Origin: a virus
Taxonomy: Duplodnaviria > Caudoviricetes
Strand: one strand, 5' to 3'
IMG/VR virus record: IMGVR_UViG_3300011336_000221
Coordinates: 1-27,391 of that record
DNA: 27,391 nt
Each line of letters starts with the position of its first letter. The first letter of the stretch is position 1. Below are positions 5,916-27,391 of this stretch, one piece after another. The notes below the pieces were generated by a model. That model was not told the DNA's origin. It searched no databases and worked only from the letters and a program-made list of their open reading frames with translations. The position numbers were made by a program, and so were the translations under genes.

Positions 5916-6137
5916 ATGAAAGACCCGTTGTATGAATCGATCTTCAAGATCAAAGAAGCTGTTTTGTTATTGCAAGACGGCGTTTTGAATGGGGTCGATA
6001 GCTGGGACAAATACAACCAGCTAGTAGGAAGAGGCCAAGGTCTGAAAGAGGCTTTGGATATTATCAACAGTGTCCTGCAAGAGGACGAGGAATCTGACAA
6101 TGACAGAGAGCAAGTACCAAGTAGATGGTCGGAGTGA
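5916..6137 (+). CDS. Hypothetical protein, about 73 aa, predicted helical
   Basis: Strong TAAGGAGG RBS. The 'WDKYNQLVGRGQGLKEAL' motif is typical of the small gene preceding phage GroES in this gene order. Start is ATG 5916 or TTG 5913. Confidence 0.8.
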   Translation: MKDPLYESIFKIKEAVLLLQDGVLNGVDSWDKYNQLVGRGQGLKEALDIINSVLQEDEESDNDREQVPSRWSE

Positions 6138-6528
6138 AGCTGACTGTTTTCCGGCCGTTGATCCGGGAATCAAGCTTAAAGGCAACCGAATCGTAGTTCA
6201 ACTGCGAAAAGCCAAAGACGTTTCAAAAGGCGGCATCATTTTAGTTAATGATACAAAGGCCACCGAAAAATGGAACGAAGTGATTGCAAAGGTGGTGGCA
6301 GTAGGCCCCTTGGCATACAGAGATCTCAACACACTGCAACCGTGGCCAGAAGGCGCATGGGCAGAACCCGGAGATCTTGTTCGTGTGATCAAGTACGGCG
6401 GCGACCGCTGGGCAGTTCCACACGGCGACGGCGAGGTTGTGTTTATCATTTTGCAAGACCGCGAGGTTATTTGCTCAATTGATAATTTTGAAACCGCGAG
6501 GACAATGTTCCCCGCATTTGTTGAATAA
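6100..6528 (+). CDS. groES: GroES/Cpn10-like co-chaperonin, 142 aa
   Basis: Motifs 'GNRIVVQ...SKGGIILV', 'AKVVAVGP', 'PGDLV...KYGG' and 'ILQDREVI' match the Cpn10 pattern. The likely start is ATG 6100 with GAGGA upstream, not the tracked 6070. Confidence 0.85.
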   Translation: MTESKYQVDGRSEADCFPAVDPGIKLKGNRIVVQLRKAKDVSKGGIILVNDTKATEKWNEVIAKVVAVGPLAYRDLNTLQPWPEGAWAEPGDLVRVIKYGGDRWAVPHGDGEVVFIILQDREVICSIDNFETARTMFPAFVE

Positions 6529-7557: not shown

Positions 7558-8112
7558 ATGGCTAACAATCGAATTACACGAGATTTAGACGAGCGCCTGC
7601 AAGGGCGCGTAGAAGAAATTAAGGCGAGGAACGAAGTGTCTTCGCCCGAAGAAGCAGTGAAGCGTGAAAGGCTGGAGGCTTTTCGGGACAAATGGTCCAA
7701 CAACGCACTGCCGGACGTGCCGGGTGGGTTAGTGCCCGGTATGCACCTCTGCTGGTTGTCTACAACCAACCAGTATGATTCAATCGACAAACGCATCGCG
7801 TTGGGTTATGAGCCAGTGAAAGCCGCCGAATTAGGAAAAGGCTTTGAACACTTAGGCAAAATGAGCTCGGGCAAGTTTGAAGGTTGTATATCTTGTAATG
7901 AGATGATCTTATTCAAGATCCCGGAAGACATTTATCAGGAAGTGGCAAAAATGCTTCACCACGATGATCCTTTGGAACACCAGCGCAACATCACGTCGCA
8001 GGTTCGTTCACAGGCTGAAGGTGGTAAAGGTGGACGCTCCATTCTGGAAGGTGGCCTCTTGGAGATGGAAAAAGATGCACACAGAGCCGCACATAACTTG
8101 CGGTTTAGTTAA
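7558..8112 (+). CDS. Hypothetical head-module protein, 184 aa
   Basis: Clean ORF with RBS between the scaffold and capsid genes, with the motif 'PGMHLCWLS...LGYEPV'. Confidence 0.75.
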   Translation: MANNRITRDLDERLQGRVEEIKARNEVSSPEEAVKRERLEAFRDKWSNNALPDVPGGLVPGMHLCWLSTTNQYDSIDKRIALGYEPVKAAELGKGFEHLGKMSSGKFEGCISCNEMILFKIPEDIYQEVAKMLHHDDPLEHQRNITSQVRSQAEGGKGGRSILEGGLLEMEKDAHRAAHNLRFS

Positions 8113-8133
8113 ACAACTTTAAGGAACCAATAA

Positions 8134-8733
8134 ATGAGTGCAACTTACACTCCCTTTGGCCTGAAGCCCGTATATCATCCTAGCGGCATTATCCGTTCAT
8201 TAAACTACACCGGTGCATACGACACTGCGGCAGTTTTTTACAGCGGTACCCCTGTCTCTTTTGATGAAGCAACGACTGCAGGCACATCTACTCTCGTAGT
8301 AGCAAGCAACACACCCACAGCAGGCATGCGTTTAGCAGGCGTGTTCGGTGGTGTTGAATACACCGACGCCTCTGGCCGTCGTACTGTCAGCAAATGGTTT
8401 GGTCCCGCTTTGGGCACCGCCTCTGACATCGTAATGTGGATTTTCATGGACCCAGAAATTGTGTATGAGATTCAAGCCAACGGCTCAATCGCTAACACAA
8501 AAGTGGGACAAGAATTTAACTTCACAGCAGTGACATCTGGTCAAATCATCGGCAACGGTGGTCTGGGCACTTCAACTGCCGCGATGTTAACCACAGACGT
8601 GGCTGTAGGCACACAAGCACAAGTTCAAGTTACTGGTCTCGGCCGTGACATTAACAACGCTTGGGGTGATACATACACGATTGTCCAAGTCAAGCTCGCT
8701 AACGATGCGTTCGTTGCCGCTAACGTCGAATAA
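8134..8733 (+). CDS. Putative capsid decoration/cement protein, 199 aa
   Basis: Thr/Gly/Ala-rich, beta-strand-like sequence starting 'PFGLKPV' and containing 'GVFGGVEYTD' and 'DPEIVYEIQ'; immediately upstream of the major capsid gene. Confidence 0.65.
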   Translation: MSATYTPFGLKPVYHPSGIIRSLNYTGAYDTAAVFYSGTPVSFDEATTAGTSTLVVASNTPTAGMRLAGVFGGVEYTDASGRRTVSKWFGPALGTASDIVMWIFMDPEIVYEIQANGSIANTKVGQEFNFTAVTSGQIIGNGGLGTSTAAMLTTDVAVGTQAQVQVTGLGRDINNAWGDTYTIVQVKLANDAFVAANVE

Positions 8734-8753
8734 CTAAAGAAAGGAAGTAGCAC

Positions 8754-9671
8754 ATGGCAACCCCAATGCGCAGTACGGACTTTAGAGCGGTAGTCGAACC
8801 TATCCTCAATGAAGTCTTTGATGGTGTATACCAACAACGCGATGACGAGTGGAAGGGTTTCGTTACCCAGATCACCGGCATTCCCCGCAACTATCACGAA
8901 GAAGTGATGCTGTTCGGTATGAACACAGCCCCTGAGATGCCTGACGGTACACCCGTTTCGTATGACCAAGGCGGTACTTTGTTCATTACCCGTTTCATCT
9001 ATAAGATCTATGGTTTGGCATACGCCATGACCAAAGTCTTGATGGAAGACGGCGATCACATTCGTATCGGCTCGACTTTCTCGAAGCACTTGGCTCAGTC
9101 CATGATCGAGACAAAAGAGACATTGTGTGCAAACTTGCTGAACTTTGCGTTCACTGCCGGCTATGTCGGTGGCGACGGTAAAACATTGATCGCAAATGAC
9201 CACCCAATCTCCCAAGGTCGTTCTTTCAGCAACCAGTTGTCTACAGCGGCCTCACTTTCACAGACATCTGTGGAACAGTTGCTGATTCAAATCCGCTCTG
9301 CGGTGGACAACAACGGTAAGCGTATTCGCCTGAAGGCGGACCAGCTCGTGGTGCCTCCTGCTTTGGAATTCCAAGCAGAAGTTATCTTGAAGTCTGTCCT
9401 CCGCTCCGGTGGCGCTGACAACGATCTGAACCCTATCAAGTCTACTGGCATGTTGCCAAACGGCGCCCACGTGGTGACTCGTTTGTCTTCAAGCAAGGCT
9501 TGGTTCATTCAGACCGACGCTGAAAACGGTTTGATGTTGGTTATGCGTCGTCCCTTGGAGCGTAGCTCTGAAGGTGACTTCGAGACCGACAGCATGCGTT
9601 ACAAGGCCTCTGAGCGTTATGCTACAGGTTGGCACGATCCCCGTAATATGTACGGCACGATCGGTTTGTAA
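8754..9671 (+). CDS. Major capsid protein (Mu gpT-like, HK97 fold), 305 aa
   Basis: Size, position and motifs ('YGLAYAMTKVLMED', 'GGDGKTL...HP', 'LVVPPALEF', 'GDFETDSMRYKASERY...WHDPR'); followed by a terminator. Confidence 0.9.
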   Translation: MATPMRSTDFRAVVEPILNEVFDGVYQQRDDEWKGFVTQITGIPRNYHEEVMLFGMNTAPEMPDGTPVSYDQGGTLFITRFIYKIYGLAYAMTKVLMEDGDHIRIGSTFSKHLAQSMIETKETLCANLLNFAFTAGYVGGDGKTLIANDHPISQGRSFSNQLSTAASLSQTSVEQLLIQIRSAVDNNGKRIRLKADQLVVPPALEFQAEVILKSVLRSGGADNDLNPIKSTGMLPNGAHVVTRLSSSKAWFIQTDAENGLMLVMRRPLERSSEGDFETDSMRYKASERYATGWHDPRNMYGTIGL

Positions 9672-9709
9672 TCGCAGACCTAGCCGGGTGTAAAGAAACC
9701 CGGCACCCT

Positions 9710-9745
9710 AAACGCCTCACCTGCAAAGGTGGGGCGTTTTTGTTT
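9710..9745 (+). terminator. Rho-independent terminator after the major capsid gene
   Basis: AAACGCCTCACCT-GCAA-AGGTGGGGCGTTT stem with a GNRA tetraloop and one G-U pair, followed by a T tract. A second hairpin, GCCGGGT-N8-ACCCGGC (9683-9704), precedes it. Confidence 0.85.
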
Positions 9746-9772
9746 GTAAATATGGGTAATTCTGTGTAGGAG
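9732..9772 (+). promoter_or_regulatory. Putative phage late promoter, copy 3 (GGGCG-N15-ATGGGTAATT-N5-TAGGAG)
   Basis: Consensus copy; the upstream box lies inside the 3' arm of the terminator. Confidence 0.7.
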
Positions 9773-9846
9773 CCTTAATCAGCACTGACCCGTATGGCTC
9801 ACGGGCGGACGCCATAGAGACAGTGCTGTAATCTTTCTATGGAAAG
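9768..9846 (+). ncRNA. Structured, pseudoknotted RNA element downstream of the gpT-like capsid gene (candidate Mu-gpT-DE-like motif or 5' leader)
   Basis: Four pairings: GAGCC 9770-74/GGCTC 9796-9800; CAGCACTG 9780-87/CAGTGCTG 9821-28; CCCGT 9789-93/ACGGG 9801-05; CCATAGA 9812-18/TCTATGG 9836-42. Confidence 0.65.
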
Positions 9847-9854
9847 TAAATCAA

Positions 9855-10388
9855 ATGTCAGTAACTTTTAACACCCCCATCCGCGTTTTCAAGCGCAACA
9901 ACCCCACCAACGACGGCGTAATCGCCCCCGATAACACCGGCGCGGTCCAGTGTGCTCAACAAGACTACATTGCCCCTATCACGGCAACCCGCCTTGCTGG
10001 TGCAATTCCTGTTTTTGCTGTTGGCACAACCACAGCGGCCCCCGTTGTAATCCCCGCCGGCGCAATTGTTAACCACATTTTCTTCATGCAAACTTCAGCG
10101 CCTTCAGCGTTGACAGGCGGCGTGATCACTGTGGCGATTGCTGGCGTTGACGTCGGTACAATTACCCCAACAACCTCTGGTGGCCGTATTGGTATTGCTT
10201 TCACTAACTCTGCCGCAGTGGCCACTGTGTTGAACAACGTTGGTTCAACCGACGCAACTGTCACGTTCACCGCAACAGCCATTACAGCCATTACAGGCAC
10301 CTTGGCCGGCACGTTTGACATCCAGTACACATCACGTAACCCTGACGGTTCTATCATTGCCTACGGCGCTGGTTACACCAACAACTAA
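9855..10388 (+). CDS. Putative virion structural protein, 177 aa
   Basis: Thr/Ala/Gly/Val-rich beta-type composition with an 'IPAGAIV' motif; first gene after the capsid gene. Confidence 0.75.
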   Translation: MSVTFNTPIRVFKRNNPTNDGVIAPDNTGAVQCAQQDYIAPITATRLAGAIPVFAVGTTTAAPVVIPAGAIVNHIFFMQTSAPSALTGGVITVAIAGVDVGTITPTTSGGRIGIAFTNSAAVATVLNNVGSTDATVTFTATAITAITGTLAGTFDIQYTSRNPDGSIIAYGAGYTNN

Positions 10389-10396
10389 GGACTGAC

Positions 10397-10675
10397 ATGC
10401 GTCAAGTAACAGTTGGAGCGGACGTTCTCGTCCCGATCGACCAGTACATAGCGCCGGTCAACGTTTCTTACGTTGCCACCGGCGGTGGTACCGTTCAGAT
10501 CTCTTACACAGACCCATTTCCACTGGACGCGCAAGGGTACCCTGTACCCACCGCCCCAGTGATGACTTGGGTATCAGCGCCAGCCAGCCCTATCGTGAAC
10601 CAGCCTTTCCGGGCTATTCAGGTAACTGGCGGCACTAACTCCACGCTTACTGTAATTCAAGCCGGAGTTCGTTAA
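10397..10675 (+). CDS. Putative small structural protein, 92 aa
   Basis: TAAGGA RBS, beta-rich composition, TAATG-coupled to the next gene. Confidence 0.75.
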   Translation: MRQVTVGADVLVPIDQYIAPVNVSYVATGGGTVQISYTDPFPLDAQGYPVPTAPVMTWVSAPASPIVNQPFRAIQVTGGTNSTLTVIQAGVR

Positions 10676-11073
10676 TGGGTAACGCCTTTTACGGCGGCCT
10701 TTATTGCGATACGCACGGACAGCCTGTGCTGTCCGTTGCGATATGCGACCGATGTAGCCGCAAACTACCATATTCCATGCTTCGGGAAGACCCGAACTCG
10801 CCCGGACTTATGGTATGCCCTGATGATGTGGACCAGTTTGATCCATGGCGCTTGGCGGCAATTCAAACCGAAAATATCACACTCAGGCACCCAAGGCCTG
10901 ATGTTTCCGTTGCCATTCCGGGTAAGGGCGGTCTTATTATCAACGCGCCCAACGTGGCAAATGTCAACCAAGGCCCCAACATGCTTGGTGACGGCACGGG
11001 TAATTCAATGACCCCCGCAACGTACGGCAACACATCTAGCACACCTACACCCGGCGACCTTGAGGTAACATAA
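10675..11073 (+). CDS. Hypothetical protein with CxxC...C motif (possible Zn ribbon), 132 aa
   Basis: 'AICDRCSRK...GLMVCPDDVDQFDP...LRHPRPD'; coupled to the upstream gene. Confidence 0.75.
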   Translation: MGNAFYGGLYCDTHGQPVLSVAICDRCSRKLPYSMLREDPNSPGLMVCPDDVDQFDPWRLAAIQTENITLRHPRPDVSVAIPGKGGLIINAPNVANVNQGPNMLGDGTGNSMTPATYGNTSSTPTPGDLEVT

Positions 11074-11075
11074 AA

Positions 11076-12998
11076 ATGGCTGACATAAGCATACTCCAAT
11101 TACCACCGGCAACGTCTGTAGGCGCAAACGACGTCACGGTTATTGTTCAAGACGGCATCACTAAAAAAGCCGCCGTCACGGTATTTCAAAATGGCATCGT
11201 TGGACCACAGGGCCCCGCAGGGCCACAGGGACCACAGGGCACCCCCGGCGCCACAGGAGCCACAGGAGCCACAGGAGCACAAGGCCCCGGCGGACCACAA
11301 GGCGCACAAGGCGTGCCCGGTATACAGGGCTTACAAGGCCCCGTTGGCCCACAGGGTTCACAGGGACCAACTGGCGCGGCGGCAACGGCCACGGCCGGCT
11401 CTACAACAACAGGGCTTCCGGGGTCTTCTGCCTCGGTTGTTAACGTCGGCTCAACGTCGGCCGCTGTTTTTAATTTTACAATCCCCCGTGGCGATCAGGG
11501 TCCCTCTGGACCACAGGGCATAGCAGGCCCCGGCGTGGTTCCCGGCGGCACCGCAGGTCAGGTGTTGATTAAGCAAAGTAGTGTTGACTACGCAACAGCG
11601 TGGGGCGCGGTAACTGGCGGCTTGTCATATTTAGGTTTTTGGAACGCGCTTACCAACACCCCCACACTGGCATCAAGCGCAGGAACTAACGGCAACTATT
11701 ACGTTGTCAGTGTTGCAGGAACAACCAACCTAAATGGAATTACAGACTGGCAGGTTGGTGACTGGGCTATTTATAACGGTACAGCGTGGCAAAAGATTGA
11801 CCAGAGTAACTCAGTTACATCTGTTAATGGTTATACAGGCGCCGTCAATCTTTTATATTCCGACGTGGGTGCTCCTTCAGTTTCAGGCATAAACGCAACA
11901 GGCACTTGGGGTATTGGAATTACAGGCAACGCCGGCACTGTAACAAACGGCGTGTACACCACAGGCAGTTATGCAGACCCATCTTGGATCACGTCTTTAG
12001 CAACAACCAAGCTTAGTGGAACAGTAACCAACGCGCAACTAGCAAACAGCCAGATTACACTAGGCACAACCAGTATTGCTTTGGGTGCCACGTCCTTGGC
12101 CCCCGTAGGTTTGACGTCTATTACTTTGACGCAAGACCCCACAACCGCGTTTCAAGTTGCAACTAAACAGTACGTAGACACTTTGGTGTCATCCGGCATT
12201 ACGTACCACGCACCAGTCAAGTACGAGGTTCCTAATTCTACAGGGAATTTGAACGCTACGTATAACCAACCCGGCGGCCCCGGAGTGGGTGTTAATGCCA
12301 CACTGACTAATGCAGGGGCGCTTGTAGCTTTTGCACCAGACGGCCCTACCGCGTCTATTGGCGATCGTATTCTTGTTTATAACCAGACCAATGCTTTTGA
12401 GAACGGTGTTTACACAGTTACAACTGTAGGAAATGGTTCAACAGCTTGGGTGCTGACCAGAGCAACAGACGCAGACACCTACGCACTAAAGAGCCCTAAT
12501 GGTTTAGGCAACGGTGACGCGTTCTTTATCACATCTGGTATCAGTGGTGCGGGTGAAACGTATGTATGCAACACTGTTGGTGTGATCACGTTTGGTACAA
12601 CAGCAATTACTTTTGCTCAAATATCGGCTTCACAGGTTTACTCCGCTGGCACGGGTTTGACACTGACAGGCACAACCTTCAGCATCTCTAACACCGCAGT
12701 AACCGCCGGCGCGTATGGTTCAGCGTCTTCTGTCGGCACGTTTACAGTCAACGCACAAGGCCAGCTAACCCTTGCAGGTAACACCGCTATTGCAATTGCC
12801 GCGTCTCAAGTAACATCTGGCACGCTTGCGGTTGCTCAAGGTGGCACAAATTCAACAGCCACACCTACCGCTGGCGGAGCTAGTTACGGCACAGGAACGG
12901 CATACGCTTTTACCGCGGCCGGCACAGCGGGTCAGGTATTGACTTCTAACGGGGCAAGTGCACCCACATGGTCTGGCATTTCAGGAGGCACGTTCTAA
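11076..12998 (+). CDS. Collagen-repeat-containing fibre protein, 640 aa
   Basis: 21 consecutive Gly-X-Y triplets; fibre-type motifs '[11 protein letters not shown]', 'ATKQYVD', '[10 protein letters not shown]...NGVY' and '[13 protein letters not shown]'; C-terminal ISGGTF. Confidence 0.85.
11193..11381 (+). repeat. Collagen-like (Gly-X-Y)21 coding repeat
   Basis: [30 protein letters not shown] ... GPT GAA, with 9-bp periodicity in the DNA. Confidence 0.9.
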
Positions 12999-14539: not shown

Positions 14540-15012
14540 AAATATCAGTTAAGTGCCTGCACATGATTCGCCATCACGAGGGCGTGAGGCAGAATCCCTA
14601 CAAATGCCCTGCAAAGCTGTGGACTGTGGGTGTGGGGCACGTTATGTTCCCAGAGCAGGGTAAGCTCAAGATAGACCAGCGGGACGCCTTTGTGCCCCCG
14701 CCAGAGGCCATGCGTAAACACTCAATGGAGGAAGTCGATGCAATACTTAGGGCAGACCTTGCTCGGTTTGAGAAAGGCGTGGCTACTTATTGTCCTGTGC
14801 CTCTTACTCAAGGACAGTTTGACGCGCTGGTATCATTTGCCTTTAACGTGGGTCTAGGGACGCTCCAGAGGTCAACCCTGCGTCAAAAGGTGCTTCGTGG
14901 CGACATGGAGGGCGCGGCGGAAGAGCTTTTGAAATATTGCATGGCCGGGGGTAAAGTTCTCAAGGGCCTGCAAAAGCGCAGAATTGACGAACGCGCTGTG
15001 TTCTTGTCATAG
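14536..15012 (+). CDS. Endolysin, GH24 phage lysozyme (muramidase), 158 aa
   Basis: 'HHEG...PYKCPAKLWTVGVGH' (E-8X-C-5X-T triad), 'LTQGQFDALVSFAFNVG' and 'GGKVLKGLQKRRIDERAVFL'. Confidence 0.95.
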   Translation: MKISVKCLHMIRHHEGVRQNPYKCPAKLWTVGVGHVMFPEQGKLKIDQRDAFVPPPEAMRKHSMEEVDAILRADLARFEKGVATYCPVPLTQGQFDALVSFAFNVGLGTLQRSTLRQKVLRGDMEGAAEELLKYCMAGGKVLKGLQKRRIDERAVFLS

Positions 15013-15052
15013 GGCGAAGGTGTTTGTTTTTATGGGTAATTATCTATAGGAG
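15012..15052 (+). promoter_or_regulatory. Putative phage late promoter, copy 4 (GGGCG-N15-ATGGGTAATT-N5-TAGGAG)
   Basis: Consensus copy between the lysozyme and the small basic gene cluster. Confidence 0.7.
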
Positions 15053-23994: not shown

Positions 23995-24236
23995 TGCAAC
24001 TCATTGAGTTTTTGCCGGACTACAACACGTGGGAAGACTGGAACGGGCAACTGGTCCACTACTTTGGGGAGCAGTCTTTTTCTGTTTTGCCTGAAGACCG
24101 GTGGCGCGAGGTTGCGCAGTCTGTTGCCGTTAATCCTGTGTTTGATAAGTACTCTGTACCAGACCCCGCGGCGTTTGAAAACTGGCAAGATTGGGCTCTC
24201 TCGTTGATTCTAGGCGTCAACGGCGACGGGGCATAA
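23994..24236 (+). CDS. Small acidic Trp-rich hypothetical protein, 80 aa
   Basis: TAATG coupling to the previous gene; 'TWEDWN...WREVA...PDPAAFENWQDWA'. Confidence 0.75.
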   Translation: MQLIEFLPDYNTWEDWNGQLVHYFGEQSFSVLPEDRWREVAQSVAVNPVFDKYSVPDPAAFENWQDWALSLILGVNGDGA

Positions 24237-24269
24237 ACACCTCAATTTGTGGGTAATTCTCTTTAGGAA
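24229..24269 (+). promoter_or_regulatory. Putative phage late promoter, copy 5 (GGGCA-N15-GTGGGTAATT-N5-TAGGAA)
   Basis: Same spacing as the other copies; its spacer (TAAACACCTCAATTT) also resembles that of copy 1 (CAAACACCCTGATTT). Confidence 0.68.
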
Positions 24270-24290: not shown

Positions 24291-27200
24291 ATGGCACTCG
24301 AAAGATCATACAGAGCGACTTTTCAAGACACAGGAGATGACTTCGGTGGCTTGTCGTTTTTGGATTCTGGTTTTACGCCTGAGTTTTTTAATCCCGCACC
24401 ACAACCTACATACCAGCCGCCTGTAGCACCAGCGGGAATGGGTCTGGAACAAGGCTATAACGAGAATGTTACGCCTGCACAACCTGCATATACACCCGCC
24501 CCAGAAATTGATTACTTTGCACAGCAATTTGAACCAGATCGATTTGCATCTATTCAACCACCAAGCCGATACAACATCTCTTCACCAGATGTTCAGGCGC
24601 AAGTCTATGCACAACAAGAAGCCGCAAGACAGGCTCAGTTAGCGCAAGAGGCTGAACAACAAAGACAGGCTCAGTTAGCGCAAGAGGCTGAACAACAAAG
24701 ACAGGCTCAGTTAGCGCAAGAGGCTGAACAACAAAGACAGGCTCAGTTAGCGCAAGAGGCTGAAGCACAAGCCAGAGCACAGGCTGAAGCACAAGCCAGA
24801 GCACAGGCTGAAGCGCAAGCCAGAGCACAGGCTGAAGCACAGGCTGAACAACAACGTCAGGCTCAGTACCAAGCCGAACAACAGGCTTATGAAGACCAAC
24901 AGCGAACTTACAGAGAAAATCAATTCCGCCAAGAAGAACTTCGCGCACAGAATGCCGCTAGGTTAGCCGCAGAACAAGAAACCGCAAGGCAAGCTGAAGC
25001 ACAGGCAGAACAACAAAGACAGGCCCAGTTAGCTCAAGCACCCGCAGGCGGATTGCCTGTAACCGGAGCGCTTGCAAACGAAACTTTGGCATTAGGTGAC
25101 AACGAAAGCGGTGTAAGAACTGCTGGTCTTGATTCTATTGATAAAAGAAGTACAGGCTTAGAAAAAAGCACTGAAGTTGTTCAAACTCCAGAAGACAAAA
25201 AGATTGCTGAAATATCTAACAGGTTGGCTGACCAAATTCTTGGTCAAAAATTAACCGACAAATGGTCTGGTCAGGGACTTGGTTCAGCCGAAGCAAATGC
25301 CCGTGACATGGCCAAGATTTTGGCGGGTATTGGAATTACTGACATCAATCAGTTTGGCCCTATAACTCGTGAAGTTCAAAAGATAGTTGGTTACGAGGAT
25401 TGGGGTGACCCAATTTATCAGACTGTAACTGAGCAAACCTATGGAAATAAGCTAACAGGTCAAGCAGTTCCAAACACGTATAGCGAACGCCAGACAGGTA
25501 ATTTCTTTGGTGGCACTTACGCAGGTAAAGGTAATACTGGGTACGGTGTTTACTTTGATGAAAAGGGCAACCCTCAGTTTTATACACAGGGCGCATCTAG
25601 TAGTGACCTTGATAAGATACAACCACTCTTAACACTTGCGTCATTTGTTCCCGGTCTTGCCCCGTTTGCCATGGCGGCAAACGCCGCAATCTCTGCAAGC
25701 CAAGGCAACTGGGCCGGCGCTATTTTAAGCGGGTTAGGTGCGGCTGGTCAGTTTGCTAACGCCACCGTGTCTCAAATTGACGCGCTGACTAAAGCCGGTG
25801 ATTTTGCTGGCGCTAACGCACTGTACCAAAGCAGTATGCTTGCGCAAAACGCAGGTGCTATTAACACAGCAAGAACTATTGCTAGTGGACTGAACGCGCT
25901 TGATCAAAAAAATATTGCTGGCGTTGTAAACGCAGGGCTTACATTAGGCGGCGTGGGTGTTCCTCCAGAAGTAAGAACGGCGGCCACATTGTTTAACGCG
26001 GCATCGGCAATTGGAAGTGGCGACACAGCAGGGTTGCTAGACGCCGCGTCTTCCTTAACAGGTAGCAGTGACGCAAAATTAGCCTCGTCGGCTTTAAGAC
26101 TTAAAACCGCGGTTGAGTCTGGTGACTTTAACGCAATCGCAAACGCCACAATGGATTTTAAAACAGCCGTTGATTCATCAACAAAAGACAACACGGCGTT
26201 CAACAAATTTAAAAATGTATTAAAAGCGGGCGGCTCTTCTGACGACGCGTTCGCCGCGGCCAGTAAGGTGACAGGCGGGGATGGAGATGGAGACGGGGAT
26301 GGTAATGTTAACCAGTTCAATACCGCAATAGCAGGCGTCACACCAACAACGCTTACTCAAGATTTGCCCGCGGACGGCGACTACGCTAAAGCGGCCGAAA
26401 GCCTTATACAACAATACGATGTTGCTGGACTGGCTTTGCCTGTAGGACAACCCGGCGGAGTAAGCGCGCCCGCAACAGCGCCGCTATTGCGTTTGGTCCA
26501 AGCGGCGGCAAACGATCCTAATTACTCGTCAAAGCTTACTGCGTTAGAAAAAGTATTGACTGCCGCGGGAAGCTCTATTTCGCGTGTGTTGAACGCCGGT
26601 ATTGCTCTTGGTACATATTCGCCATCTACCAACGCAGGAGAATACCAAGCATTACAACGTTTGCGCGAATCTGGAATGATTACGCTAGATGATGTGAACA
26701 GAGCTGGCGCAGGTCGAGGCGTTGTAAACCCCCCAAATGTAAAGCCGGACCCCGTAACAAGTCCTGCAACTAACAAACCTTATGTAGTACAGCCGGGCGA
26801 TTATTCAGACACAACTGAACCAATTCAACCATGGCAAAACATCGACCCCACTTCTGGTTTGCCCGCGGTTAAACCACCGCCAGAAACAGAGCCGGAACCG
26901 GAACCTCCCGCAAATGATCCTGCGTTTGTGCCTCCTCCGGCCCCTATTACTACACCACCTTTTATTGCGCCTCCGGAGCCCCCCGCAAATGATCCTGCGT
27001 TTGTGCCTCCTCCGGCCCCTATACCTTTCGAGCCTCTTGTTGTCCCAAAAAGACCGCCCGCAAACGAGCCGATATTTGTGCCACCAACAAGGCCAGTGGT
27101 TCCTGCACCTGCCCCTGCCCCTGCGCCCGCTCCGGCTCCTGCACCTGCCCCTGCGCCCGCTCCGGCTCCTGCACCTGCCCCTGCGCCCGCTCCGGCTCCT

Positions 27201-27391
27201 GCACCTGCCCCTGCGCCCGCTCCGGCTCCTGCACCTGCCCCTGCGCCCGCTCCGGCTCCTGCACCTGCACCTGCCCCTGCGCCCGCTCCGGCTCCTGCAC
27301 CTGCCCCTGCGCCCGCTCCGGCTCCTGCACCTGCCCCTGCCCCTGCTCCCGCTCCGGCCCCTGCTCCTGCACCTGCCCCTGCGCCCGCTCC
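24291..27391 (+). CDS. Very large low-complexity protein (>1033 aa, 3'-truncated), putative internal virion / DNA ejection protein (not in ORF track)
   Basis: ATG at 24291 (MALERSYRATFQDTGDDFGG...), and I found no stop before the window end. It contains a Q/A/E coiled-coil repeat, a globular segment, Gly/Ala-rich hydrophobic helices ('LLTLASFVPGLAPFAMAANAAISASQGNWAGAILSGLGAAG') and then Pro-rich repeats. Confidence 0.8.
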   Translation, partial: MALERSYRATFQDTGDDFGGLSFLDSGFTPEFFNPAPQPTYQPPVAPAGMGLEQGYNENVTPAQPAYTPAPEIDYFAQQFEPDRFASIQPPSRYNISSPDVQAQVYAQQEAARQAQLAQEAEQQRQAQLAQEAEQQRQAQLAQEAEQQRQAQLAQEAEAQARAQAEAQARAQAEAQARAQAEAQAEQQRQAQYQAEQQAYEDQQRTYRENQFRQEELRAQNAARLAAEQETARQAEAQAEQQRQAQLAQAPAGGLPVTGALANETLALGDNESGVRTAGLDSIDKRSTGLEKSTEVVQTPEDKKIAEISNRLADQILGQKLTDKWSGQGLGSAEANARDMAKILAGIGITDINQFGPITREVQKIVGYEDWGDPIYQTVTEQTYGNKLTGQAVPNTYSERQTGNFFGGTYAGKGNTGYGVYFDEKGNPQFYTQGASSSDLDKIQPLLTLASFVPGLAPFAMAANAAISASQGNWAGAILSGLGAAGQFANATVSQIDALTKAGDFAGANALYQSSMLAQNAGAINTARTIASGLNALDQKNIAGVVNAGLTLGGVGVPPEVRTAATLFNAASAIGSGDTAGLLDAASSLTGSSDAKLASSALRLKTAVESGDFNAIANATMDFKTAVDSSTKDNTAFNKFKNVLKAGGSSDDAFAAASKVTGGDGDGDGDGNVNQFNTAIAGVTPTTLTQDLPADGDYAKAAESLIQQYDVAGLALPVGQPGGVSAPATAPLLRLVQAAANDPNYSSKLTALEKVLTAAGSSISRVLNAGIALGTYSPSTNAGEYQALQRLRESGMITLDDVNRAGAGRGVVNPPNVKPDPVTSPATNKPYVVQPGDYSDTTEPIQPWQNIDPTSGLPAVKPPPETEPEPEPPANDPAFVPPPAPITTPPFIAPPEPPANDPAFVPPPAPIPFEPLVVPKRPPANEPIFVPPTRPVVPAPAPAPAPAPAPAPAPAPAPAPAPAPAPAPAPAPAPAPAPAPAPAPAPAPAPAPAPAPAPAPAPAPAPAPAPAPAPAPAPAPAPAPAPAPAPAPA
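24627..24866 (+). repeat. Tandem coding repeats: 36 bp x ~4 (RQAQLAQEAEQQ), then 24 bp x 3 (AQARAQAE)
   Basis: The unit agacaggctcagttagcgcaagaggctgaacaacaa starts at 24627, 24663, 24699 and 24735; gcacaagccagagcacaggctgaa units start from 24765. Confidence 0.92.
26907..27022 (+). repeat. 41-bp direct repeat x2 encoding PANDPAFVPPPAP
   Basis: cccgcaaatgatcctgcgtttgtgcctcctccggcccctat at 26907-26947 and 26982-27022. Confidence 0.88.
27102..27391 (+). repeat. (Pro-Ala)n coding minisatellite, 30-bp unit, running off the window end
   Basis: The unit CCTGCACCTGCCCCTGCGCCCGCTCCGGCT repeats about nine times, with occasional 6-bp insertions. Confidence 0.95.

Follow-up and report, generated by a model that had tools for sequence, protein, structure and literature searches.

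The described RNA closest to the element reported here is Mu-gpT-DE (RF03012), a family of 53 positions that Rfam types as 'Gene; sRNA', with a structure of two helices that ends at an AUG and contains neither the third arm nor the start-codon pseudoknot described below. Its original description is attributed to PMC5737381, the main text of which does not contain the term 'gpT'. In the accessible text of the CaCoFold preprint, RF03012 is among the families given a better-supported structure, which may hold an extra pair. The accessible text of PMC10690425 catalogues 8,495 unnamed phage RNAs, and the long form of the leader analysed here may be one of them; the three supplements of that paper that were searched contained no match to it. 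No description or function of this leader was found in the literature searched, which covers few subscription journals.

Two autogenous operators of phages offer a comparison. T4 gene 32 regulates itself through a pseudoknot, according to the accessible text of PMC10690425, and the N terminus of the P22 scaffolding protein has been implicated in translational autoregulation (accessible text of bioRxiv 2022.12.13.520362). As here, each is the structured leader of a gene whose product is required in proportion to its binding sites, but the T4 and P22 regulators are not cement proteins, no kinship in sequence or structure was seen, and binding by a cement protein is putative in our case. The cement proteins of phages GP4, KHP30 and Pam1 are described in the accessible part of PMC9698820 as trimers at three-fold axes; the Pam1 protein has an N-terminal loop that extends to the capsid, and GP4 contains cement and capsid proteins in a one-to-one ratio, 540 of each. 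That part of the article makes no mention of RNA binding by these three proteins.

The stretch of viral DNA that was analysed, called the window, is 27,391 nt long and forms part of a tailed-phage morphogenesis region with genes for a terminase, portal, GroES, major capsid protein, tail fibre, endolysin and SU10-type adaptor. The closest capsid proteins of cultured phages are those of Caulobacter phages (64.6% identity), and those of Roseobacter phage CRP-901 and Pelagibacter phage HTVC023P are about 40% identical. The 34 genome-bin matches obtained for host assignment were spread across many phyla. The phage-encoded GroES co-chaperonin lies within the head operon (6070-6528), and Caulobacter phage RW, CRP-901 and phage QDWS535 have one too. 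At the far end of the window, 3′ of a copy of the promoter-like motif at 24229, there is an open-ended ORF (24291-27391) of more than 1,033 aa, rich in AQQ and with Pro-Ala repeats, which we would guess is possibly a large virion or ejection protein. The features around the RNA element are as follows.

8754..9671, + strand: major capsid protein gene (Phage_capsid_4 / Mu-like gpT; Pfam PF25209, E 4.9e-11, and PF10124, E 2.2e-9; PHROG 371, major head protein)
9710..9748, + strand: intrinsic-terminator-like hairpin and T-run at the end of the capsid unit, a 13-pair stem followed by a T tail
9732..9761, + strand: promoter-like motif of GGGCG, 17 nt and TGGGTAATT, with three copies in the window and a presumed promoter function
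9855..10388, + strand: ORF 9855, 177 aa, the product of which begins with a conserved T-F-x-x-P arm and, from structure prediction and fold match, is predicted to be a jelly-roll cement (decoration) protein of the capsid

The order 3′ of the capsid stop codon is a hairpin, the terminator-like stem with its T-run, the promoter-like motif, the RNA element and ORF 9855, and the element starts about 100 nt 3′ of the stop codon of the capsid gene with the PF10124 match. The hairpin with the T-run was also present in the relatives inspected. A second hairpin (GCCGGG...CCCGGC, 9683-9704) lies between the capsid stop codon and the terminator and is found in most of the closest relatives. The spacer between the capsid and cement genes is a frequent insertion site of nuclease-like genes, seen 3′ of the capsid stop codon in L024, L029, L289, L290, L293 and L081 (L-numbers denote individual relative loci compared with the window); those of L290 (GIY-YIG/NUMOD3) and L289 (HNH, below the cut-off) resemble homing nucleases, and that of L081 has DUF723/CapR repeats.

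The RNA element itself comprises four helices, a junction core and an RBS-like site.

9770..9800, + strand: P1 pseudoknot, GAGCC (9770-74) with GGCTC (9796-9800), by which the 5′ end is tucked into the P3 loop
9780..9828, + strand: P2, junction arm 1, CAGCACTG (9780-87) with CAGTGCTG (9821-28), from sequence and covariation
9787..9821, + strand: three-way junction core with three GAC strands (9787-89, 9808-10 and 9819-21), arm 3 being closed by C9810-G9819
9789..9808, + strand: P3, junction arm 2, CCCGT (9789-93) with ACGGG (9801-05), from sequence and covariation, with an alternative register given below
9812..9842, + strand: P4 pseudoknot, CCATAGA (9812-18) with TCTATGG (9836-42), in which the arm-3 loop (9812-17) pairs with 9837-42
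9841..9846, + strand: weak RBS-like GGAAAG, identified from sequence, its GG lying within P4

An earlier note on this DNA had claimed four helices here, with the first and the last as pseudoknots, and both points held: every helix lies where the note had placed it, P1 crosses P2 and P3, and P4 crosses P2 only. The helix order is a-b-c-a′-c′-d-b′-d′, with the 5′ flank going into the P3 loop and the 3′ flank into the loop between P3 and P2. The window contains a single instance of this order, a topology picked post hoc, and 20,000 dinucleotide shuffles of the 87-nt stretch contained none. The nested fold of the element was unremarkable (z −0.58) because the folding program cannot form pseudoknots. 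Comparison with relatives refined the pairing as follows: P3 appears to adopt either a register of 9790-93 with 9801-04 plus C9789-G9808 or the 5-bp register of 9789-93 with 9801-05, the conserved junction implies the extra pairs C9789-G9808 and C9810-G9819, and the seventh pair of P4, A9818-U9836, is not kept. At the RBS position the relatives mostly carry AGGA or GGAG, on P4 or at most 6 nt away.

An alternative pairing of TATGGC with GCCATA had been suggested to make the element a conformational switch. The pairing is present in the sequence and outcompetes P3 in a nested model (−20.0 vs. −16.3 kcal/mol), but it is not conserved: it is broken in nine of 10 distinct close relatives, the window being the one in which it is intact, and L001, the capsid protein of which is identical to that of the window, already disrupts it. 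We therefore rejected this switch and regard the pairing as an accident of this genome.

The element is real and conserved across freshwater and marine phages, including the cultured Pelagibacter phage HTVC023P. Covariation across homologues, which the earlier note had named as a check on its structure, was found in both groups. In the freshwater alignment A2 (47 sequences), both partners vary in 20 of 23 pairs, and the covariation was 0.40 compared with 0.16 after shuffling and at most 0.17 in slid controls; in the marine alignment A3 (39 sequences), both vary in 12 of 13 nested pairs, with a covariation of 0.75 compared with 0.21 after shuffling. The observed value was reached by 0 of 500 shuffles for each alignment, and slid controls were far lower, although these counts are not probabilities because kin are not independent. 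All five pairs of P1 change on both sides, with 94.9% of cells paired in A2; all nine pairs of P2 covary in A3; and P3 covaries in both alignments. The P2 pairs across 46 distinct forms were 339 Watson-Crick, 25 GU, 0 AC and 4 other, and the presence of GU together with the absence of AC therefore favours an RNA of the + strand.

Because plain alignments misregister P4 between subgroups (it was 70.2% paired in the plain freshwater alignment), the support for this helix rests on a comparison of matched and swapped strands. At least five Watson-Crick pairs were formed by P4 in 97.4% of 115 matched leaders, with 28 different loop sequences, compared with 2.8% of 11,302 swapped combinations, and by P1 in 94.6% of 111 matched leaders compared with 4.0% of 8,430 swapped ones; the test kept 137 of 152 parses, partly by a score that includes P1 and P4, and the matched rates are upper bounds. 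A marine-only model found the window element as its sole match in the window (24.3 bits, E 0.018), and a freshwater-built model found the element of HTVC023P (25.9 bits). The element was not found in Caulobacter phage RW, L082 or Alcaligenes phage QDWS535.

The product of ORF 9855 has 556 homologues but no Pfam or PHROG match and no family name; in phage DSL-LC04, the gene at the syntenic position carries the annotation 'cement protein'. The AlphaFold model is a beta-sandwich (pLDDT 85.4), for which Foldseek gave no match in the PDB at E<=0.001. The best PDB folds were Pam1 capsid chain H (Z 9.0, rmsd 4.3, 120 aligned), GP4 chain J (Z 8.1, rmsd 3.5, 130 aligned) and the KHP40 trimeric cement protein (Z 7.5, rmsd 4.3, 117 aligned), which were the top three of 48,161 chains, with a small margin over unrelated rows. 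The cement proteins of Pam1, GP4 and KHP30/40 resemble ORF 9855 in fold, in a gene position beside the capsid gene and in an extended N terminus, but the identity is 14-16%, and they are trimers whereas that of ORF 9855 is putative. Since the fold matches are middling (Z 7.5-9.0), the trimer of ORF 9855 is a supposition drawn from the accessible part of PMC9698820. Among 59 distinct N-terminal arms, F is present in 58 and P in 57 (partly by selection), and Arg follows the Pro in 42. The body of the cement protein varies among carriers, with different domains behind the same arm, so that only the short N-terminal arm is common to them.

The element travels with the promoter-like motif and ORF 9855 rather than with the capsid gene. 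Among 80 loci whose capsids are 87-100% identical, 74 match ORF 9855 and have the element visible before that gene, and it keeps with the motif and the ORF 9855 homologue despite 350-780 extra nt between the capsid and cement genes. This agrees with the earlier proposal of a cis-acting leader of the next structural gene: the element stays attached to that gene past inserts, and in all 120 long forms the distance from the end of P4 to the AUG is 7-17 nt. In a DNA-only pattern scan, read by eye, each match with a P1 context precedes a gene with the cement arm. At L058, which has two tandem cement-like paralogues (4102 and 4678), the leader lies before the first only.

A junction descriptor that uses neither P1 nor P4 matched 157 of 192 distinct cement-gene leaders, compared with 22 of 1,058 leaders of other genes, and six of those 22 belong to cement genes missed by the protein pattern; this descriptor, with its control set, replaced a looser parser that had passed 152 of 153. 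Both pseudoknots are present in 120 of the 157 matching leaders, P1 only in three, P4 only in one and, by that test, neither in 33. The nine junction letters persist between phages whose capsids share about 40% identity, whereas the helices differ in sequence. Many of the 35 cement-like leaders missed by the strict descriptor have one or two changes in the junction (L024, L038 and L049), and the symmetry is therefore broken in them. The C-G pair of arm 3 becomes U-A in L049/L053 and in L100; in L049 and L053 the junction A's are also altered, and the cement arm has S-Y instead of T-F. However, L100 combines a variant junction with a normal arm, and L311 a T-Y arm with a normal junction, and since these two loci break the L049/L053 pattern, RNA-protein coevolution between junction and arm is not claimed. 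Six cement-like genes with short spacers (L296, L300, L301, L303, L307 and L315) have no element.

These distributions bear on whether the element is the operator of another protein, such as the major capsid protein, a scaffold or a host factor, that would repress or open the fold and couple cement to head assembly. The capsid gene is the most conserved neighbour, and the cement body is exchangeable, as such an operator would allow. Nonetheless, the element was not seen (by eye) at 11 loci where the capsids are related (63-66% identity) and the next gene has a different N terminus, and models R1 and R2, built from marine or freshwater leaders, found no second copy in the window. We consider an operator of this kind unlikely.

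The promoter-like motif, GGGCG/A-N17-TGGGTAATT, is present in the window at 9732-9761, 15012-15041 and 24229-24258, with a partial copy at 1075-1098, and the version in relatives is GGGCG-N16-18-TGCATTAGT. It is unlike the sigma-70 consensus, a search for which gave 0 matches. The AGGAG after the motif is the RBS at 15048 and near 1094, and at 9768 it is paired in P1. The cement gene often has a promoter-like motif of its own. Transcription is predicted to start near 9768-9770, and P1 begins at this predicted site. In 53 of 54 freshwater forms, P1 starts 6-9 nt after the end of the motif. Among 39 other forms, 27 have a TAnnnT box at the same distance (6-9 nt) 5′ of P1, and neither motif nor box was found in 27.

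Metatranscriptome assemblies from four runs in three studies, compared over 8000-11500, contained contigs covering this region. A contig of run X1 spans 8728-9943 and bridges the terminator, RNA contigs on the capsid side end at 9678-9716, and contigs from three runs start at 9779 (with adapter-bounded ends in X2 and X3, of one study, and the X5 contig of a second study). Position 9779 is inside the P1-P2 linker, about 10 bases 3′ of the predicted start; contigs cannot establish ends, and these starts may reflect library truncation or processing. In the control at the promoter copy near 15048, three runs had no coverage, and the X5 contig reads through. The starts at 9779 are therefore not counted as support for any reading.

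The contig starts at 9779 are a weak hint of a self-cleaving ribozyme or processing site that would release the cement mRNA, and HDV-like ribozymes are similar in broad layout, with two pseudoknots and a 5′ end hidden inside the fold. Such ribozymes have a nested double pseudoknot in which P3 closes before P1, and they require a catalytic C. Here, the helix order is unlike that of HDV, the matching position is A in 95, C in 13, G in 6 and T in 1 of 115 forms, the P1-P2 linker is variable in length and sequence and is missing in short forms, and no Rfam ribozyme model matched. Cleavage by the element is thus most improbable.

A link to Mu-gpT-DE had been raised in the earlier note, and it stands as kinship but not as membership: the window element is a long relative of RF03012 that shares its locus and core and is not a member by score. 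The RF03012 model gave no match in the window, either at the gathering score (49 bits) or at E<=10, none at E<=10 in five long-form records, and none at gathering in 20 relatives. As a positive control, it matched CRP-901 with 72.3 bits at the same locus, where the SD and AUG of the cement gene fall within the model. Of 20 mixed loci compared with RF03012, the eight that matched are all short forms. Among all Rfam families, no model matches the window element, and five matches at E<=10 nearby cover the terminator.

Like the window form, Mu-gpT-DE lies after a gpT-like capsid gene and before a cement gene of the T-F-x-x-P type, and its Rfam consensus contains three GAC strands; P2 and P3 are common to both, and in both the loop of arm 3 finds its partner further 3′. 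Its core of P2-A-P3 followed by AC..GAC is present in the window. The two differ in that the 3′ strand of P2 is the SD itself (CAGGAG) in Mu-gpT-DE, with the AUG within about 12 nt and a total length of about 53, whereas the window form has about 75 nt 5′ of the RBS, an extra P1 pseudoknot and a longer P2 that ends 26 nt before the AUG and is followed by P4. The partner of P4 is before the RBS in the window form and on the AUG in Mu-gpT-DE. Among phages whose capsids are 97-100% identical to that of CRP-901, some have the long form and others the short: CRP-901 itself has the short form, and capsids 97-98% identical to its own go with the long form. Neither the short form nor the compact form described below is found by models R1 and R2, and therefore the link of these to the long form rests on the locus, the descriptor and the shared core.

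In the short form (RF03012 type), P2 pairs the GG of the SD in 33 of 33 cases, and the arm-3 loop pairs the AUG and codon 2 in 31 of 31 first cases. Two new DNA-only scans gave the same start-codon pairing in 75 of 75 viral and 35 of 35 metagenome distinct combinations, with a few contigs of the viral scan overlapping the first short-form set. Loops with GCC precede Ala codons (42 viral and 22 metagenome), and loops with CCC or ACC precede Gly codons (33 and 13), whereas swapped loop and codon classes reach four Watson-Crick pairs in 25 of 2,772 viral and 13 of 572 metagenome combinations. The Ala/Gly class changes seven times on the capsid tree, with four changes forced by strong branches, and could reflect swapping of two old alleles. 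The start-codon pairing corresponds to P4 and falls outside the 3′ boundary of the RF03012 model, which seems to be without a pseudoknot joining its 3′ loop to the start codon and codon 2 (L083:2988-3046; L129, L134, L323-L397 and L525-L644). Some short forms start 5-12 nt after the terminator, which leaves no room for a separate promoter, and therefore the core is not only a 5′-end cap.

A compact form of about 45 nt, first seen in L124 and L148 and present at L407, L408, L413, L432 and L435 as well, has a three-way GAC junction that encloses both the SD and the AUG. In a scan for the first two GACs, 32 of 120 loci (14 contexts) had the third GAC directly before the AUG of a cement gene; of the others, 87 lacked a third GAC accompanied by a start, and one matched by chance. 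Arm 3 of the compact form is a hairpin of 5-7 pairs (two in one context) that holds the SD, and P2 pairs the AUG. The minimum-energy fold was a three-armed junction for five of six tested at 15 °C and six of six at 37 °C, and the compact form of L124 scored below gathering for every Rfam family. Three architectures thus place the same junction over the translation start.

We considered whether the element is instead an independent small RNA or packaging RNA made 3′ of the capsid gene. It has its own promoter-like motif, Rfam types Mu-gpT-DE as an sRNA, and phages do make packaging RNAs, such as the pRNA of phi29. However, no terminator-like site lies between the element and the AUG, and two architectures fold in the SD and the start codon and covary with codon 2. 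The small structural RNA that the earlier note had allowed for is therefore disfavoured, as is the ribozyme, and a free RNA is very unlikely.

The short-form scans also indicate how specific the gene context is. Of 120 viral matches, 107 precede genes with the cement arm by the strict pattern, and seven precede arm variants or a cut gene. In general metagenomes, 43 of 118 loci have the strict arm and five have arm variants, and the other 70 are without a four-pair P3 with a nearby AUG. A riboswitch for a small molecule or ion, with the adenine-lined junction as the pocket and P4 or P2 as the expression platform, would have the usual anatomy of translational riboswitches, namely pseudoknots, a junction with a small number of strongly conserved bases and a final helix over the RBS. 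Yet structured matches were seen only before cement-arm genes, general metagenomes included, there is no metabolic gene context, and none of the riboswitch classes in Rfam 15 matched at gathering in the window and 20 relatives. We think a riboswitch improbable.

Across the three architectures, the pairing pattern with its covariation keeps a fixed link to the cement gene and is placed on its initiation region; as in the operator class, the structure covers or adjoins the site where translation of a single, constant gene begins. Some kind of regulated translational control is quite likely. The claim that the last helix pairs the RBS stood in part: the GG of the SD is paired in 34 of 120 long forms, but in the other 86 it lies 0-6 nt outside P4, and because of this, repression in these 86 would need to be steric. 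A structural tuner or stabiliser that has no ligand, sets a fixed initiation rate and shields the 5′ end by P1, with GAC merely a good way to build a compact junction, would be at ease with this SD position, with a P1 that starts at the predicted transcription start and with four helices and two knots that could fold constitutively. It fits less well with the short and compact forms, which have no P1, sometimes lie 5-12 nt behind the terminator, and pair the SD and AUG directly, or with nine junction letters that persist where helices turn over. We see a tuner as fairly unlikely, though it deserves some weight.

The reading that we favour, at close to but not quite an even chance, is that the element is a translational OFF switch of the cement gene, the junction of which is bound by surplus, unassembled (putative) cement trimer. 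The fold hides the SD and AUG of a virion protein made in abundance and so cannot stay closed permanently; something would have to shift it. Free cement protein is a quantity worth sensing, because it is needed one-to-one with capsid protein in GP4, yet its gene is behind a terminator. The late transcript would begin at P1. While capsids are available, cement protein would be consumed, and the last helix (P4 here) would open often enough for ribosome loading; once capsids are saturated, free cement trimer would lock the pseudo-three-fold junction and, by keeping P4 against the RBS, halt synthesis. Cement output would in this way be matched to capsid output despite the terminator between the two genes, and P1 of the long form would probably add 5′-end protection and stability. 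The conserved junction would be the obvious handle, a trimer matching a junction of three equal strands. The SD that is unpaired in most long forms, the variable cement body, the junction variants and the cement genes without the RNA weigh against an operator.

A more specific version, which we put forward tentatively and hold with clearly less confidence, is that the pseudo-three-fold junction of three GACs is a symmetry-matched sensor of trimeric cement, with a nine-letter core kept in three folds, and that a feedback that counts free trimers explains Mu-gpT-DE. The TRAP protein binds single-stranded repeats with 11-fold symmetry, and TRAP and coat-protein arms read short repeated RNA motifs. 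TRAP is thus a model for a trimer on three GAC strands, as a symmetric oligomer on repeated triplets, but its repeats are single-stranded whereas the triplets here form a paired junction.

With these results, an orphan motif of unknown function becomes a regulator that can be put to direct test. Mu-gpT-DE would belong to the cement gene 3′ of it, as its leader, and would be neither a 3′ element of the capsid gene nor an sRNA. Two further architectures stand outside Rfam, and the family is common, an estimated 5,700 stored IMG/VR stretches matching the short pattern alone. Infection experiments are feasible, because both the long form (HTVC023P and DSL-LC04) and the short form (CRP-901) occur in cultured phages. 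If a cement trimer does read the three-fold junction, this would be a rare match of symmetry between an RNA fold and a virion protein, and it would give phages a means of balancing their head components by a compact, protein-responsive switch in a previously undescribed feedback loop.
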